DNA from: Candidatus Woesearchaeota archaeon | GTDB taxonomy: Archaea > Nanobdellota > Nanobdellia > Woesearchaeales > JAZDKJ01 | Direction: 5' to 3' | Assembly (NCBI GenBank): GCA_043803105.1 | Contig: JAZDKJ010000008.1 | Location: forward strand, 106,787-170,786 | Length of the DNA stretch: 64,000 nucleotides | Shown: in pieces, positions 6,710 to 48,342 of the stretch | How the letters are laid out: each line of letters opens with the position of its first letter | How positions within the stretch are numbered: the first letter of the stretch is position 1 | Position numbers and translations under genes: made by a program | Notes under the pieces: model-generated | The model's database searches: none | Seen by the model: the letters and a program-made list of their open reading frames with translations, nothing else | What the model was told of the DNA's origin: nothing

Positions 6710-6915
6710 GCCCCGTTGGTGTAGCCCGGCGCAATGGAACTTCAGTTAGAGGTTCCATGCGGGAACAATCATTCGGCCCTCTCGAGGCCGAGACTCGGGT
6801 TCAAACAGCCTTTTTCCATAGGAAAAAGCCTGGGGAAAGGCTTTTTTGCCTTCGGCAAAAAAGTGTGTTTCAAAGGTTTCAAATGTGGGAGGGTTAGAAA
6901 ATCCCGAACGGGGCA
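6710..6915 (+). tRNA. tRNA-Glu(CTC) with D-loop intron (~6730-6765) and T-loop 59/60 intron (6806-6901)
   Basis: GCCCCGT/ACGGGGC acceptor stem; CGGCC-CT CTC GA-GGCCG anticodon arm; cloverleaf restored by removing two inserts with BHB-like junctions. Confidence 0.92.
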
Positions 6916-6960
6916 TTAATTTCTTAACACCATATAACAGAATTCAACGAGTTCGCAACA

Positions 6961-6968
6961 TATTTAAG
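6961..6968 (+). promoter_or_regulatory. Putative TATA box for the tRNA-Ser leader
   Basis: TATTTAAG ~25 nt upstream of the hairpin at 6994. Confidence 0.45.
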
Positions 6969-6993
6969 GGGAAACTAGTTTTTATGTCAGCAA

Positions 6994-7045
6994 GCCGCGG
7001 TCGCATACTCACAGAACAAGTTCTGTGGTCGCGACCTTGTGTGGC
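6994..7045 (+). repeat. Hairpin beginning with an exact 14-nt copy of the tRNA-Ser 5' end
   Basis: GCCGCGGTCGCATA at 6994-7007 equals 7088-7101; folds GCCGC/GTGGC, GGTCGC/GCGACC, CACAGAAC/GTTCTGTG. Confidence 0.8.
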
Positions 7046-7087
7046 AATCTTCAAGCTAAATAGCTTGATGGCAATAAGATCAATTTT

Positions 7088-7229
7088 GCCGCGGTCGCAT
7101 AATCCGGTACGCGCTGGATTCCTCCGGAATCCGCTGGTGTCCCGTGCGCGGAACATTGCGGCAGTCTCGAACCAATGCAAGAGAACTGCTGTCCGTAAGG
7201 GCATCTCGGTTCAAATCCGAGCCGCGGCG
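7088..7229 (+). tRNA. tRNA-Ser(CGA) with D-loop intron (7109-7154) and 12-nt anticodon intron (7172-7183)
   Basis: GCCGCGG/CCGCGGC stem, G73, long variable arm TGTCCGTAAGGGCA, anticodon CGA 7168-7170; BHB TCCG/CGGA at the D-loop. Confidence 0.9.
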
Positions 7230-7237
7230 TTTACACA

Positions 7238-7546
7238 ATGTATATCCCAAAGCGTTACGGCCAGAGCAAGATTGACAAGTGCCCTTTCTGCGGAAAACAG
7301 GCCATCGCACTTAACAAGCAGAAGGTTCCAGTCTGTGAAGCGCACAAATGGAACAATCTGGATGAGATGAAATGCAGCTGCGGAAGCTACCTGGAGATGA
7401 AACATGGGAAATTTGGGGTATTCTTCGTTTGCTTCAAGTGTGGAAACAAGAACCTAAAGCAGGTGCTTGAGATAAATGAGCCCAAAGATAAGAGCAGCAG
7501 TCAGAATGAAATAACTGTAAGGTCTGATGACCCAAGGTACTTCTAA
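7238..7546 (+). CDS. Small Zn-ribbon protein
   Basis: CPFC, CEAH, CSCG, CFKC; GKFGVFFVC resembles topoisomerase Zn ribbon. Confidence 0.7.
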   Translation: MYIPKRYGQSKIDKCPFCGKQAIALNKQKVPVCEAHKWNNLDEMKCSCGSYLEMKHGKFGVFFVCFKCGNKNLKQVLEINEPKDKSSSQNEITVRSDDPRYF

Positions 7547-7605
7547 AATAAAAAGATTTAAAAAGAGGGGTTTCCTCATATTAACAAAATTGATATTTTT
7601 GGGAG

Positions 7606-7980
7606 GTGAATAAATTGGCAAAAGAGGTAAAAACAGCGAGTAGTAGCATGACACAGACAATAGGAGGCTGGGCATTCATCATCGGTGTCATCATTGCAGT
7701 AATTTCTGGATTTTTTATGCTCAGCGCAACGCTTGTCTCAGTACTTGTATTGCTGGGATTAATAGTCGGCTTCTTGAACATAACAGGCAAAGAGACAATG
7801 GGGTTTTTGATGGCAACCGTGTCTTTGGTAATTGTTAGCTATTTCGGAGGCCAAGCCTTAAGCGAAATCGCTTTTGTTGGCACGGTGCTTGCAGGCATCA
7901 TGAATGCAATAATGATATTTGTGGTACCAGCAACAATTGTCGTGGCCCTGAAGTCAATATTTGCAATGGCACACGATTAG
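7606..7980 (+). CDS. Small multi-pass membrane protein
   Basis: Four hydrophobic segments; GGAGGTG SD near 7601 (true start may be TTG 7615); T-rich tract downstream. Confidence 0.75.
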   Translation: MNKLAKEVKTASSSMTQTIGGWAFIIGVIIAVISGFFMLSATLVSVLVLLGLIVGFLNITGKETMGFLMATVSLVIVSYFGGQALSEIAFVGTVLAGIMNAIMIFVVPATIVVALKSIFAMAHD

Positions 7981-8001
7981 GTTTTTTATTTTTTTTTATT
8001 T
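7981..8001 (+). terminator. Poly-T archaeal terminator
   Basis: GTTTTTTATTTTTTTTTATTT directly after the stop codon. Confidence 0.55.
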
Positions 8002-8022
8002 TAGAATTCTTTGAAGGCAAAT

Positions 8023-8679
8023 TTAGAATAGTCTGTTGGCAAAAGCACTGAATCTTGTATCCATCTGTATTTCGGTTGTTTTAGGTGCACCTTGCCTGTA
8101 TCCAGATGCGAATAGGTCAACAACCAAATCAATAAATGGTTTTGGTTTTGCAGCCCATTTAGCGCTTTGCACATCTGCCTTTACCTGTATTATATAATCG
8201 AGACCTTTGTCTCCGAAAATGGCTCCGCTTAGCATTGCCTCGATGATATCAGCCTTCGTAACATTATAGTTCGCAGGGACACATCTCCTCCGTGTCATAA
8301 CATCTGCAATACCTTGAACAATTCCTTCCTGCACTCCCTTAACAAAAGCCAGACTCACCGGATGATTATGGAAAGCGAAAGCTGCAATCGGCACCTGGGA
8401 GGCATACAAATTTGCCTTATCCCGGTTTAGATCCATCAACATCCAGACTGGATCCTTGGAGTTGCTAATGGTCCTCTTGAGGTACTCAAACTCCCTGTAA
8501 CCAATATGAGAAGGAGGAGCACTGACATAGTGGCCTCCAAGAATTGGAAATCGAAATTCTGTGGTATCATAAGTACTTTCATAGTTGAATGAAGCATTCC
8601 TAAGTATTGTAACAAGAAGTTTAACATCTTTCCGTGAACAACGCATTTTCTTGGAAGTTGGAATTCGTTCGCCTATCAT
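8023..8679 (-). CDS. Hypothetical protein
   Basis: 218-aa ORF, ATG start, TATA-like motif upstream. Confidence 0.55.
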   Translation of the reverse strand: MIGERIPTSKKMRCSRKDVKLLVTILRNASFNYESTYDTTEFRFPILGGHYVSAPPSHIGYREFEYLKRTISNSKDPVWMLMDLNRDKANLYASQVPIAAFAFHNHPVSLAFVKGVQEGIVQGIADVMTRRRCVPANYNVTKADIIEAMLSGAIFGDKGLDYIIQVKADVQSAKWAAKPKPFIDLVVDLFASGYRQGAPKTTEIQMDTRFSAFANRLF

Positions 8680-12727: not shown

Positions 12728-12876
12728 TGGCGGTGCCGAGACTTCCGCATCCTTTTGGGATATTCGGACTCGGGACCTTTACGTCACCCATGGTTTAGCT
12801 TGAGTATATCATCGGCATCTGCCTCATCGCTCAAGAATATGAGCGTAACGCTATAACCAGGCTAAGCTACACCGCC
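12728..12876 (-). tRNA. tRNA-Met(CAT), elongator type, with 53-nt anticodon intron (12785-12837) and 21-nt T-loop intron (12742-12762)
   Basis: GGCGGTG/CACCGCC stem, TTACG-CT CAT A|A-CGTAA; BHB helices CTCA/TGGG and TCCG/CGGA; Ile2 identity not fully excluded. Confidence 0.88.
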
Positions 12877-13010
12877 AGCTTTTTTTGTCCCAAAAAAACC
12901 TGGGAAAAGGGTTTTTGGCTGGTGCCAAAAACGCAGCCTCTACGGCTGCAAAAGTTGCCAGCTGACTTTTCAGCTGAGCAGCACCGCCAGCTTTTTTGCT
13001 GATGCAAAAC
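12870..13010 (+). repeat. Multi-hairpin element upstream of tRNA-Met bounded by a 16-bp direct repeat
   Basis: CACCGCCAGCTTTTTT at 12870-12885 and 12982-12997; interior homologous to the tRNA-Glu T-loop introns. Confidence 0.8.
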
Positions 13011-25871: not shown

Positions 25872-26127
25872 GCCCCGTTGGTGTAGTCCGGTGACGGTCT
25901 TGTCCGTCAACACCGAAGGCGGCTCCTAGTGACTTCGTCACCGGAGCCCCCTGTGTTATTGGCGGCACGTCAGGACAATCAATCATCCGGCACTTTCGAT
26001 GCCGGGACTCGGGTTCAAAGAGCTTTTTTCCATGGGAAAAAACCTCGGAAAAGGCTTTTTGGCTTCGCCAAAAAGTTTGTTTCAAGGAGTTCAATTGTGG
26101 AAAAACTAGAAAATCCCGAACGGGGCA
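25872..26127 (+). tRNA. tRNA-Glu(TTC) with D-loop intron (~25892-25978) and T-loop intron (26020-26113)
   Basis: Exons near-identical to tRNA-Glu(CTC); CGGCA-CT TTC GA-TGCCG; BHB helix GTCC/GGAC. Confidence 0.92.
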
Positions 26128-43290: not shown

Positions 43291-44043
43291 GCCAATTTCC
43301 AATTGCGACCGAAAAATAATACCCGTTGATCCTGCGGGAGGTTGCTGCTATTAGGGTTCGACTAAGCCATGCAAGTCCTGGCCTCGCAAGAGACCGGCAA
43401 ACTGCTCAGTAACACGTTGATAACCTACCTTAAGGTTCGGGATAACCTTGGAAAACTGAGGACAACACCGGATATGGGTTAAATTCTGGAACGATTTTAC
43501 CTTGAAACGCAAGGCCTTAAGATGGGTCAGCGGCGGATTAGGTAGTTGGTGGGGTAACGGCCCACCAAGCCGAAGATCCGTAGGGGCCATGAAAGTGGGA
43601 GCCCCGAGAAGGACACTGAGATACAGGTCCTAGCCCCACGGGGTGCAGCAGGCGCGAAAATTCTACAATGCACGAAAGTGTGATAGAGGAACCCTAAGTG
43701 CTTTACTTTGTAAGGCTTTTGCCAAGTGTAAAAAGCTTGGCGAATAAGTGGTGGGCAAGACTGGTGCCAGCCGCCGCGGTAACACCAGCGCCACTAGTGG
43801 GAGCCACATTTATTTGGCCTAAAGCGTTCGTAGCCGGTTCAGTAAATCCTTTGTGAAATCATTGCGCTTAACGCAATGGCTGGCGAAGGACACTTCTGAA
43901 CTAGGAACCGGGAGGAGTCAGAGGTATGGGTAGGGGAGCGGTAAAATGCTATAATCCTGCTTAGACCACCTGTGGCGTAGGCGTCTGACTAGAACGGATT
44001 CGACGGTGAGGGACGAAAGCTAGGGGAGCGATCCGGATTAGAT

Positions 44044-44195
44044 ACAGCTTTTTTTGGTCGAGCGAACCTCGACACAAAAAAACCTGGGAAAATGTATACA
44101 CTCAAGTGCCATCTTCGATGGCACGGACTAGTAGATCGCAAAAATCTGCTGCTAGTCGAGAAAACCAGGTTCATCATCATAAAAAGCTGCTAATG
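44044..44195 (+). other. BHB intron in 16S (~E. coli 793), 152 nt, no ORF
   Basis: Splits GGATTAGAT|ACCCG; TTAG/CTAA helix with ATA and TGA bulges, CAGC/GCTG closing stem. Confidence 0.9.
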
Positions 44196-44282
44196 ACCCG
44201 AGTAGTCCTAGCTGTAAACGCTGTGAGTTAGGTGTTGCGTATTCCTCGTGAATACGCAGTGTCGTAGTGAAGACGTTAAACT

Positions 44283-44837: not shown

Positions 44838-45662
<825 letters not shown>

Positions 45663-45750
45663 GCCCGTCAAACCACTCGAGCAGGGTTTAGGTGAGCATC
45701 AATTTTTTGATTGCTGCGAATCTAAGCCCAGTGAGATGGGTTAAGTCGTC

Positions 45751-45793
<43 letters not shown>

Positions 45794-45844: not shown

Positions 45845-45992
45845 GGGCCCGTAGCTCAGCGGTACTTTTCGCGCGAAAGAGCACCGCCCCTGCACACGCT
45901 GGAACCCAGTTCTGCTGGGTCCAAACCGGCGTTTGGACAGGCGGTGGCCTCGGGTTCAAACAGCAGATTGCTGGAAAATCCCGACGGGTCCA
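45845..45992 (+). tRNA. tRNA-Ala(TGC) with three introns (~45864-45877, 45895-45938, 45961-45978)
   Basis: GGGCCCG/CGGGTCC stem with G3-U70; located in the 16S-23S spacer. Confidence 0.92.
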
Positions 45993-48051
45993 TTCAAACT
46001 CACACACAAATGAGAAACAAAGTCCACATGTGAAACATGCGGACTGGCTGGCTTAGATTTAACAATCAATGATGCCGTGCACTGTAAACAATTGGAAATC
46101 AAAGCTATTAGGTGGATGACTTGGTTCTGAACGCTGATGAAGGATGTGACAAGCAGCATTATGCTCCGGCGAACCGCATGTAGGTTTTGAACCGGAGATT
46201 TCCGAATCTGACTTCAGCATAGAATCCGTAAGGATGGGGAACGCAGGGAATTGAAACATCTTAGTACCTGCAGGAAAAGAAATCAATCGAGATGCCGTTA
46301 TTATCAGCGAGAGAAAGCGGCGTAAGGCAAACTGAATCCCGCCAGGTAACTGGAGGGAGATGTGGTGTTATAAGACCACTGGTATTCCAAGCTGGGGAAC
46401 TCGAAGTTCCTTGGAACAGGACGCTGTAGAGGGTGACAGCCCCGTACAGGCAACTCAGCTGGATTAAGGTGGTATCTTGAGTACTGTTTACTTGATACTA
46501 AACAGGAATTTGGGAGTCATCAACTTCCAACCTTAAATACGTTCAGAGTCCGATAGCGCACAAGTACCGTGAGGGAAAGTTGAAAAGAACCCTTGACAGG
46601 GAGTTAAAAGATCCTGAAACCTAATAGCGATAGTGGGGTACTGCTCTTAGGAGTTGTACCGTGCGTTTTGAATAACGTACCAGGGAGTTTATTTATGTGG
46701 CGAGGATAAGTCTAACGACGGATCCAAAGCGAAAGCAACAAGCTCGCAAGCAATCAGGAGCGCCGTATGAAAGTGCGGGGAGTCACATGAATATGACCCG
46801 AAGCCAGATGAACTAGCCGTGGGTAAGGTGAAGCGCGGGTAAAACTGCGTGGAGGCCTGCAGAGGTTCTACGAGCAAGTGTTCTTCTAACCTGTGGCTAG
46901 GGGTGAAAAGCCAATCGAATCTGGTGATAGCTGGTTCCTGCCGAAGTTGGCCGCAGTCAAGCCTCAGATGAGGGTGCGGTATTTGTAGAGGTACGGATTA
47001 GGGATTTAGGGCTCGAAAGGGCTCGGTCTCTCGTCCAACTCCAAATGATACCGCCCCGTAGACGCTGAGAGACGGGGGTCCGGGGTAAGCTTGGATCCCG
47101 AAAGGGGAACAACCCAGACTGCAGTTAAGGCCCCAAAATACTGACTAAGTGTGAAAGGGTGAAGAGTGTCCTAAGCCTAAGACAGCGAGGAGGTTGGCTC
47201 AGAAGCAGCCACCCTTTAAAAAGTGCGTAACAGCTTACTCGTCAAGGTTTAGGGCCTTGAAGATGGACGGGACTAAGTCAGTTGCCGATACTGCAGACAT
47301 TCTTCGGAATTGTGATAGGCAGGCGTTCTGTTTGGGAAGAATCATTTCCACAAGGAGATGAGGACCGAACAGAAATGAAAATCCTGGTAAAAGTAGGAAC
47401 AGAGTAGAGTAAGAACCTCTACCGCCGAAAGGGCAAGGGTTCCTTGACAATGCAGATCAGTCAAGGGTTAGTTGATCCTAACTAATTTCCTAATAGGAAA
47501 CCATGAGGAAAGGGAAACCGGTTAATATTCCGGTACTGTCCGAGTATGCGCGGCAACGCAAGCCATGTTTCCGACGCTTCCGGTTAGGCCAACACAGCTC
47601 GTCTGCTGTGCTAACCAACATATATCAAGGGAGTATTGTCATGATGAGAACTTGATAAAAGGAGGGAATGGTCTCTCGTATGAGGGATTTGGTCGAGACC
47701 AGGAGCCCGTGAAAAGGGAATGTGGAAAAATCTTGGATAATCATACCCAGAACCAGCACAGGTGCCCCTAGGTAAGTAGCCTAAGGCGTGAAGGTGTAAT
47801 CTAACTGAGGGAACTCGGCAAATTAGCCCCGTGCCTTCGGTATAAGGGGTCCCTGCCACGGTGTCTGTATAGATGCCATGACAGGGCGCAGTAACAAGGT
47901 AGGTCCGACTGTTTAACAAAAACGTAACTGTCTGCCAGCCCGCAAGGGTGAGTATAGGCGGTGACGTCTGCCCAGTGCCAGTACTTGAAATTTGGGTTCA
48001 ACCAATATAAGAGCTGGTAAACGGCGGGAGTAACTATAACTCTCTTAAGGT

Positions 48052-48342
48052 AAGCACAAAGTTGCCTTAACAAAATTTGGCTAAATGCTGGAAAGTCTTG
48101 TAGAAGCAGAATAGGATAACATTGTGGCAACATAATGTCGAACCCTGAAAATTTCTGTGGAAAGACAATCAGCAGGAAAGATTTCTCAAATCGAGAAAAA
48201 TCCTCAGAGACTATACGCCAAACGCTTCCGATGGGAGCGAAGATATAGTCCGACCCTACAAGCGATTGTAGGAGACGCAGCAGAAATGTGCGTCCGCCAT
48301 TTAAAATGGTCAGTACCTGAAAACAGGGAAGCAACAGACGTG
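48052..48342 (+). ncRNA. Group I (IB-like) intron in 23S at ~E. coli 1931, 291 nt, no ORF
   Basis: Splits CTTAAGGT|AGCGAAAT; P1 TTAAGGT/GCCTTAA with U-G pair; P AAATGCTGGAA, Q AATCAGCAGG, R TCAGAGACTA, S AAGATATAGTC; terminal G. Confidence 0.93.

Follow-up and report, generated by a model that had tools for sequence, protein, structure and literature searches.

A tiny hairpin element, probably mobile, at the head of T-loop and 16S introns in a DPANN archaeon

It remains an open question how protein-spliced introns of the bulge-helix-bulge (BHB) type enter archaeal tRNA and rRNA genes. The present analysis concerns a 64,000-nt stretch of the genome of a Candidatus Woesearchaeota archaeon (GenBank assembly GCA_043803105.1, contig JAZDKJ010000008.1, positions 106,787 to 170,786 of the forward strand; this whole stretch is called the window below). 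One short hairpin motif recurs there in the T-loop introns of two tRNA-Glu genes, in the leader of a tRNA-Met gene and in an intron of the 16S rRNA gene, and an earlier reading of the window (the sequence-only reading) had pointed out these four sites and proposed a non-autonomous repeat that might drive intron gain. The motif is indeed present at all four, with its first hairpin alone at the 16S site. Comparison of its copies within this genome and across other genomes indicates that it is probably the core of a tiny, non-autonomous, non-coding insertion element of DPANN archaea, one that makes long target duplications of variable length, persists where splicing, end-trimming or duplication preserves the gene, and heads both T-loop and 16S introns. 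The family would thus be a concrete and searchable candidate for a vehicle of intron entry.

Structure and copies of the element

The repeated unit of this DPANN genome (1.56 Mb, 96.5% complete) can be reduced to a core, here called E, that is composed of CAGC, a run of T5-7, a short Watson-Crick-perfect stem-loop, a run of A5-7 and the conserved end CCTGGGAAAA. The core measures 35-50 nt and is represented by 35 alignment positions; composite forms reach about 90-120 nt. Its first copy in the window occupies positions 6806-6838 of the plus strand (CAGC-CTTTTTCC-ATA-GGAAAAAG-CCTGGGGAAA) and is matched by a covariance model of the core, R1, at 6804-6838 with an E-value of 3.8e-8. This copy opens the 96-nt T-loop intron (6806-6901) of a plus-strand tRNA-Glu(CTC) gene (6710-6915), which also carries a D-loop insert and whose acceptor stem (GCCCCGT/ACGGGGC), anticodon loop (CTCTCGA) and T stem (TCGGG/CCCGA) were read by eye. 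All tRNA identities in the window were obtained in the same manner, from acceptor, anticodon and T-arm pairing; neither ARAGORN nor Rfam called a tRNA in the window (Rfam even at an E-value of <= 10 on 241 nt). The intron splits TTCAAA|T at position 59/60, which is ambiguous within the A run, and proceeds from core E through a second hairpin (hairpin 2, CTTTTTTGCC-TTC-GGCAAAAAAG, 6841-6863, plus strand) to a 38-nt tail that resembles the upstream exon (GGGTTAGAAAA as compared with GGGTTCAAA).

The same layout recurs in the plus-strand T-loop intron of tRNA-Glu(TTC) (26020-26113, read by eye), where core E (26020-26052; R1 match 26018-26052, E-value 2.0e-8) has GAG/CTC in place of CAG/CTG and is followed by hairpin 2 at 26055-26075. 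Removal of the insert restores, by reading, a TTCAAAT T loop in tRNA-Glu and likewise in the spacer tRNA-Ala gene (45845-45992), whose 18-nt T-loop mini-intron (CAGCAGATTGCTGGAAAA, 45961-45978, plus strand) had been described as an empty version of the element. Such a version does exist: the mini-intron has the ends of E (CAGC...GCTGGAAAA) and lacks the T/A hairpin. At the tRNA-Met gene, a minus-strand gene with introns that was also read by eye (12728-12876), the element lies in the leader and antisense to the tRNA, such that the first base of the tRNA overlaps the first C of CAGC and a two-hairpin layout (12876-12935) abuts the 5' end of the tRNA. Here the R1 match belongs to a long composite form (12876-12981, plus strand) that runs from core E (12876-12908) through hairpin 2, hairpin 3 and AAAAGTTGCC to hairpin 4 (AGCTGACTTTTCAGCT), and that can be aligned over approximately 115 nt to a second copy adjoining another tRNA.

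Taken by itself, the window offers weak evidence for the 15-nt linker motif (4 matches against 1.47 expected, a count reached in 6 of 100 shuffles), whereas the genome-wide evidence is strong. The end AAACCTSGRAAAA has 14 exact sites in the genome, 11 of which are flanked by CAGC and a T-run hairpin, the other 3 being chance matches in coding sequence. Among the 11 aligned copies, 99.2% of the 124 pair cells are paired (122 Watson-Crick, 1 G-U and 1 unpaired) and compensatory change is seen at 5 pairs; none of 500 shuffles matches the observed covariation score, the paired fraction or the number of cells changed on both sides, the count of 5 compensatory pairs is reached in 2 of 500, and shifting the partner by one column lowers pairing to 63-65%. 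The outer 3-bp helix takes part in this variation, with CAG/CTG replaced by GAG/CTC in tRNA-Glu(TTC) and by AAG/CTT in two other copies. For hairpin 2, covariation had been claimed as well; by eye it holds (GCC-TTC-GGC, GGC-TTC-GCC, GGC-TGGT-GCC, GGC-TGAT-GCC and CC-TCAAC-GG), but the automatic alignment fell out of register and retained only 1 compensatory pair.

The genome scan with a covariance model, which had been put forward as a check of the repeat, was run with R1 and gave 15 matches at an E-value of <= 3.4e-4. Of four weaker matches, two are true copies with large inserts in the hairpin, which brings the total to 17 copies; the other two (L047 and L048) lie in coding sequence and were set aside as doubtful. 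The family takes the form of a short, non-autonomous, multi-copy unit with terminal inverted repeats (CAGCT5-7 ... A5-7(C)CTG). Its 5' boundary is sharp, in that 13 copies from one metagenome-assembled genome (MAG) of Undinarchaeota, which constitute a subfamily of their own marked by a hairpin of 57 nt and by an extension conserved at the 3' side, have nothing in common upstream of CAGC; its 3' end is GGG followed by 3-7 A. As a separate observation, GGGAAAAAGAGGTGAT is repeated 65 nt apart upstream of short reading frames (L043 1589-1669, contig C5), and in a relative (G014) the similar GGGGAAAAAAGAGGTGAT is found ahead of a start codon; the G3A4-5 end of the element is thus similar to a leader or ribosome-binding context that is common in these genomes.

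By reading, as opposed to an automated caller, 16 of the 17 copies were placed within tRNA or rRNA genes or next to them. T-loop or T-arm introns of tRNA genes begin with eight of the copies and the 16S intron with one. A further four immediately precede tRNA genes, two of them in sense and two in antisense orientation, three immediately follow tRNA-Ala(CGC) and tRNA-Thr(CGT), and one is intergenic and away from any tRNA. ARAGORN confirms the two intron-less neighbours, tRNA-Ala(CGC) and tRNA-Thr(CGT).

The copies might instead descend from an old, vertically inherited T-loop cassette, the ends of which would be kept by BHB pairing with the universal T loop, so that likeness among copies would reflect shared constraint and not transposition. 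CAG/CTG and GGAA do fit a T-loop BHB, the mini-intron of tRNA-Ala shares these ends while lacking the hairpin, the intron of one tRNA is exactly E, and the ends are conserved across DPANN phyla. Nevertheless, 7 of the 17 copies here and many elsewhere do not belong to an intron; they are found in either orientation, at the ends of protein genes and between genes, and these copies keep GGGAAAA with nothing for it to pair with. Loci with no relation to one another also share identical hairpin tops (3 loci have CCATAGG and 4 have GCAATATGC), and the patchy distribution of the element, its flanking duplications and its empty sites, all described below, likewise speak against a cassette, which we consider quite unlikely.

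Target duplications and empty sites

Outside introns, the copies share a layout in which a duplicated stretch is followed by E, with or without a variable tail, and then by the second duplicate. Duplications straddle the element in 10 of the 13 regions of the first inspected set and at 10 of 30 further loci; as with the copy contexts, they were counted by reading. At the further loci, repeats of >= 25 nt at >= 88% identity occur in 6 of 30, as compared with 0 of 30 control windows taken from these same loci at a displacement of 2 kb, and the repeats held by 10 of the 30 displaced controls are only short or of low complexity. The example within the window is the 25-nt direct repeat at tRNA-Met, GCT.AGC..CACCGCCAGCTTTTTT, whose first copy (12861-12885) and second copy (12973-12997, plus strand) enclose the composite element; the second copy holds the duplicated 7-nt tRNA end CACCGCC together with the start of a decayed further element copy. 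Elsewhere in this genome, two tRNA 5' ends each carry a duplication of 21 nt and a third tRNA 5' end carries one of 14 nt; the intergenic copy is flanked by 24 nt, and the repeats measure 28 nt (present three times) at tRNA-Ala and 27 plus 16 nt at tRNA-Thr.

Other DPANN genomes extend this picture to protein genes. A 59-nt duplication covers the last 17 codons and the stop codon of an Altiarchaeales gene; at gene starts, the ribosome-binding site and first codons are duplicated over 35 nt in a Micrarchaeota gene, over 63 nt at 98% identity in gatE and over 64 nt at 97% identity in a pilin-like gene, and another gene start carries a three-fold stack of duplications. Duplications at tRNA ends in those genomes measure 25-32 nt (25-29 nt for tRNA 3' ends). 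Altogether, the lengths recorded are 7, 14, 16, 17, 19, 21, 24, 25, 27, 28, 29, 32, 35, 59, 63 and 64 nt, and the fixed-length target-site duplication of a miniature inverted-repeat transposable element (MITE) is thus not what is found here.

Within introns, traces of the same layout are seen. The 3' end of a tRNA-Ser intron holds a decayed copy of the upstream exon (GCAACGCCCCGGACA, with GCAAGGCTTTCCCGGACA in the exon) and, like the tail of the tRNA-Glu(CTC) intron, such exon-like remnants at intron 3' ends fit the duplication-element-duplication layout inside the intron.

Two insertions can be compared with empty sites. The gatE insertion is missing from the orthologues in two relatives (81% and 71% identity), in which the gene start is uninterrupted and unduplicated, and the Altiarchaeales insertion is missing from two relatives whose genes end in ...NRILK(K)* and are then followed by unrelated DNA. 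The same-genus genome G001 was uninformative on orthologous tRNA sites: the two genomes are too dissimilar in DNA sequence, a search of G001 for the 5' pattern of tRNA-Glu gave nothing, and the only match is a 46-nt stretch just downstream of tRNA-Glu(CTC) (6994-7039) that matches three places in G001 at 82-96% identity. The surrounding 2 kb has no match in G001, and the stretch is not repeated within 6900-8200; it may represent another small repeat family.

The duplications also bear on a second alternative, namely that the hairpin is a functional two-way terminator or end-processing signal, with a T run on both strands, and that replication slippage at the hairpin produced the repeats. Several copies abut tRNA 3' ends in the sense orientation with the T run directly after the discriminator base (L128, L077, L108 and L115), and in one relative a copy sits between a stop codon and the next gene, as would be expected of a terminator. 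Slippage by plain tandem duplication of the element and its flank would, however, require a second element copy beside the outer repeat at gatE, and none is there; moreover, approximately 17 copies would serve approximately 1,500 genes, 8 of the copies interrupt tRNA genes, in which a terminator would do damage, and the conserved CCTGGGAAAA plays no part in termination. This explanation is accordingly very improbable.

Scarcely credible, in turn, is the proposal that the duplicated gene ends are the attachment-site (attL/attR) scars of integrase-type integrative plasmids or viruses, with the hairpin left as a cargo remnant after deletion. Such events are classically recognised by tRNA fragments next to tRNA genes, as in the tRNA-Thr fragment model set out for Caldiarchaeum in the part of that report available to us (PMC3293823). 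What lies between the repeats here, however, is only 35-130 nt of non-coding DNA, each repeat is a piece of the local target, the same core is enclosed by duplicates of a wide variety of targets, the starts and ends of protein genes among them, and no match to the exact pattern of the element was found in 2.9 million viral contigs.

Splicing and the persistence of copies

If the element does insert in this way, a copy would survive only where the gene still works, and two routes to survival may be envisaged. The duplication may re-create a complete gene end, as at tRNA 5' and 3' ends or at the first and last codons of protein genes; alternatively, RNA processing may remove the insert, either from leaders and trailers, which RNase P or RNase Z would trim, or through BHB splicing. 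With regard to the latter, when E is set against the T arm, CAG/CTG would form the intron-side helix, the T loop would offer TTC(A/G) as the partner of GGAA, and the 3' bulge would consist of the final AA of E and T60, so that the ends of the element and the T stem would together make a BHB-like substrate for the splicing endonuclease. The T loop may be favoured as an intron site precisely because the element's own ends fit it. The duplication itself could contribute: in one tRNA, the intron ends in a slightly changed second copy of the T loop (TTCCGAAAG after TTCGAAG) and, since TTCGAA is palindromic, a duplicated T loop would pair with the original through TTCG/CGAA, a perfect 4-bp central helix.

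Folding predictions temper this scheme for tRNA-Glu. The minimum-energy fold of its T arm with the intron (z = -4.4) closes the T stem and leaves a 7x7 internal loop with a possible 3-bp TTC/GAA helix only, such that the junction would be, at best, a relaxed form of the BHB motif, which canonically has two 3-nt bulges separated by 4 bp. Both tRNA-Glu T-arm/acceptor loci found in the genome, the only two, bear the intron, and no uninterrupted copy was found; therefore, the intron would have to be transcribed through its T runs and removed. The genome encodes one splicing endonuclease gene (EndA, 203 aa, alpha-type), and a survey, as far as the part available goes, links alpha4-type enzymes with an extra loop in DPANN archaea to heavily disrupted tRNA genes (PMC5829648). 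Beside the EndA gene, on the opposite strand (L173 2199-3089, contig C4), lies a gene for a 296-aa protein with an HWHGDH motif. To judge by that motif, this protein may be RNase Z.

The 16S rRNA intron (152 nt, 44045-44196, plus strand) lies inside GGATTAGATA|CCC, and in the Rfam small-subunit rRNA alignment it appears as a 153-nt insertion after GGAUUAGAUA, the removal of which restores the conserved GGAUUAGAUACCCG. At its 5' end stands a core E with a longer hairpin (44045-44092, plus strand; R1 match 44043-44092, E-value 8.4e-7), and at its 3' end a degenerate inverted core E was recognised by eye on the minus strand (44161-44189; AAAACCAGGTTCATCATCATAAAAAGCTG on the plus strand, ...AACCAGGTTCATCATCATAAAAAGCTG). 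In the predicted fold (z = -5.0), the AAAAAGCTG of the inverted copy pairs with CAGCTTTTT at the 5' end, and adjacent to a TTAG/CTAA helix its AAAAAGCUG is joined to CAGCUUUUU of the 5' side. A near-canonical BHB can be drawn at the junction, with TTAG/CTAA between ATA and TGA followed by the helix CAGCTTTTT/AAAAAGCTG, and the minimum-energy fold is a close variant of it; on this modelling, the 16S junction appears BHB-like.

The same rRNA operon carries other inserts. The Rfam 16S match ends at 44916, and the true 3' end of the gene (...GGATCACCTCCT) lies at approximately 45746-45793, so that an insert of approximately 830 nt (44917-45745) falls near the 16S 3' end; its open reading frame (45192-45695) encodes a 167-aa LAGLIDADG endonuclease (Pfam E-value 9.8e-18), and the insert reads as a second, large intron of the 16S gene. 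A group I catalytic intron is found within the 23S rRNA gene (48022-48272; Rfam RF00028, 80.3 bits). The operon thus holds three kinds of insert.

Movement, distribution and precedents

No parent insertion sequence (IS) or matching transposase was found in this genome, where none of the 14 exact right-end sites bounds a longer element. A link to HUH/IS200-IS605 transposases, which the sequence-only reading had suggested looking for, gained no support. Such an enzyme (Y1) might have mobilised a hairpin derived from repetitive extragenic palindromic (REP) sequences or from IS200/IS605 in trans, acting on single-stranded DNA; the element does begin with four conserved nucleotides and continue with a hairpin whose pairing is perfect as DNA, and the genome does contain one Y1_Tnp gene, IS200-like and coding for 151 aa (contig C6 210429-210884; L171 1447-1902). 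Among 41 genomes (this one and 40 relatives), Y1 is also commoner with the element than without it (4 of 5 as compared with 6 of 36; one-sided Fisher test approximately 0.009 by hand calculation, the genomes being kin and not independent). On the other hand, the Y1 gene is bracketed by its own near-identical hairpins (CCGCACTTTAGTGCGG), which are unrelated to the element, and no R1 match lies near it; Y1 is absent from 4 of 5 other element-bearing genomes, among them one with 13 or more copies and two with 97-98% identical duplications. IS200/IS605 and REP insertions, moreover, are not known to make a target duplication, the opposite of what is seen here. Mobilisation by this route is therefore very unlikely. 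Searches for other enzymes were likewise negative, as TnpB was not found in this genome and RVT_1 was found in none of the six genomes searched (this one and G041-G045, for which completeness is not given).

Variable duplications (7-64 nt) and an A-rich 3' end recall target-primed retroposons of the kind of short interspersed nuclear elements, and the reverse transcriptase that would accompany this likeness was not found in the genome. We envisage that the element enters DNA at two nicks a variable distance apart and that fill-in would copy the stretch between them. A DNA-level process acting on the hairpin or a cruciform is our tentative preference, held at somewhat less than even confidence, because G-U pairs are nearly absent, both orientations occur and no reverse transcriptase was found; retro-insertion of excised intron RNA is unlikely, and is kept alive by the A-rich 3' end, the variable duplications and the fit of the ends of E to splice-site logic. 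A simpler version, in which the mobile unit is just the excised intron, was dropped: although one tRNA elsewhere in the genome (L011) has an intron that equals E exactly, ending in CCTGGGAAAA|TCCC, a pattern for introns that end in GGGAAAA followed by TCC matched none of 172 loci, and this form is therefore rare.

More speculative, and on balance rather unlikely, is a broader proposal in which the hairpin represents a new class of mobile element that has no transposase of its own, is moved by host enzymes and serves as a general vehicle of BHB intron gain in DPANN tRNA and rRNA genes. The enzymes in question might be those of replication and repair, with a DNA hairpin as their substrate; alternatively, the splicing endonuclease and the ligase RtcB might handle excised intron RNA that is then copied back into DNA, and the target duplication would itself create a splice motif in the palindromic T loop.

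The distribution of the element is patchy. R1 gave no match in the only other genome of the same genus (84% complete), matches in 4 of 39 other genomes of the same order and, under strict filters, matches in 13 of the 150 genomes that were sampled from the phylum, each of which has 1-4 as compared with 15 here. When every prokaryotic species was represented by one genome and scanned for the exact pattern, at least 106 stretches were obtained, nearly all in DPANN MAGs from several phyla; in 16 of the 106, the element comes straight after a GTTCRAA T loop. Among the 80 matches listed, 75 are labelled archaea (Woesearchaeota, Micrarchaeota, Undinarchaeota, Iainarchaeota-type, Nanoarchaeia/Nanoarchaeota, Altiarchaeales and bins labelled Methanosarcinales) and 5 are labelled bacteria, which are taken as chance. 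ARAGORN, applied to these 80, places the element within 151 nt of a tRNA in 17 of the 75 archaeal-labelled loci listed, several of them abutting.

Several considerations weigh against a mobile element as the explanation. Neither a transposase nor an integrase nor a reverse transcriptase was found linked to it, and its mobility is argued from comparative anatomy; the empty sites were recognised in orthologues at 67-81% identity rather than in population variants. Some copies have no duplication of >= 14 nt (L061 and L065 among the 13 regions, and 20 of the 30 further loci, of which several are T-loop introns and others abut a tRNA end). The conservation of the ends across phyla could reflect a selected function, whether a fit to the universal T loop or a T-run terminator on both strands. 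The intron-containing tRNAs are eye readings, and runs of T5-7 in essential tRNA genes should terminate archaeal RNA polymerase, such that read-through is assumed. Finally, detection in other genomes employed strict filters and one exact pattern, and the prevalence figures are rough.

With these points weighed, a mobile insertion element remains the probable explanation, and the sequence-only reading stands in its central part: a small non-autonomous repeat occupies BHB introns and RNA leaders and may drive intron gain, as suggested by the 16 of 17 copies at tRNA or rRNA genes, the duplications, the two empty sites and the occurrence in many DPANN phyla. Its analogy to REP sequences, MITEs and HUH-mobilised elements was not supported, given duplications that are long and variable and a Y1 gene that is unlinked. 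The element does share with MITEs and with REP sequences and their mosaic clusters (REP/BIME repeats) a short, non-coding, multi-copy, hairpin-forming structure with inverted ends and no gene of its own, but it differs in a core of just 35-50 nt, in duplications of 7-64 nt and in its strong bias toward tRNA and rRNA genes. A prokaryote-wide MITE census records DPANN genomes as MITE-dense and, in the part of the report available to us, says nothing further on them (PMC11602168). No description of the element was found in the literature searched, although the supplements of that census could list it (PMC11602168).

The nearest precedent is found in the Thermoproteales, in which near-identical introns are shared by tRNA genes that differ from one another and sit at differing positions within them, which implies that they spread as DNA, by a mechanism that the review, in the part available, describes as unknown (PMC4090602). 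The sharing of intron sequence between tRNA genes is common to both cases (Fujishima et al. 2010, via PMC4090602), whereas the element here, hosted by DPANN archaea, is not confined to introns and is found in either orientation and at the ends of protein genes, with duplications, empty sites and a defined hairpin core. In Caldiarchaeum subterraneum, according to the part of the report at hand, a tRNA is disrupted by a 1.8-kb recombinase-encoding element and its 5' fragment lies beside an intact, intron-bearing tRNA gene (PMC3293823); unlike that element, the present one spans tens of bases and encodes nothing. As for direct repeats near splice sites, the study that considered them covered, in the part available, 4 archaeal introns, none of them from DPANN (PMC11782384), and a 2026 preprint on Asgard tRNAs leaves the route of intron arrival open in the portion available to us (10.64898/2026.10.13.758758).

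In eukaryotic algae and fungi, introner elements turn insertions into introns, since the inserted element and its target duplication supply what splicing needs. The element described here would work alike, with the differences that a protein endonuclease and a BHB motif take the place of the spliceosome, that the hosts are archaea and that the element is far smaller. The tool used in the MITE census mentioned above reportedly misses elements this short. As the same 35-50-nt unit appears as a fresh insertion with duplications, as a passenger of leaders and trailers and as the head of T-loop and 16S introns, intron gain becomes testable in DPANN co-cultures and long-read metagenomes. The family would also explain the failure of tRNA finders on these genomes, in keeping with disrupted tRNA genes having already been suspected in DPANN archaea, as stated in the accessible part of the survey of splicing endonucleases (PMC5829648).

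Two minor observations concern the intron-less tRNA genes. The T loops of tRNA-Ala(CGC) on contig C6 and tRNA-Thr(CGT) on contig C12 are odd (TGCGACT and TGCAACT), with G at the near-universal U55 position. A permuted transfer-messenger RNA ("tmRNA*") called by ARAGORN over the stacked tRNA-Ala 3' ends (L004 1386-1829, contig C6) is almost certainly a false call, because pieces of the acceptor and T arm are repeated there.

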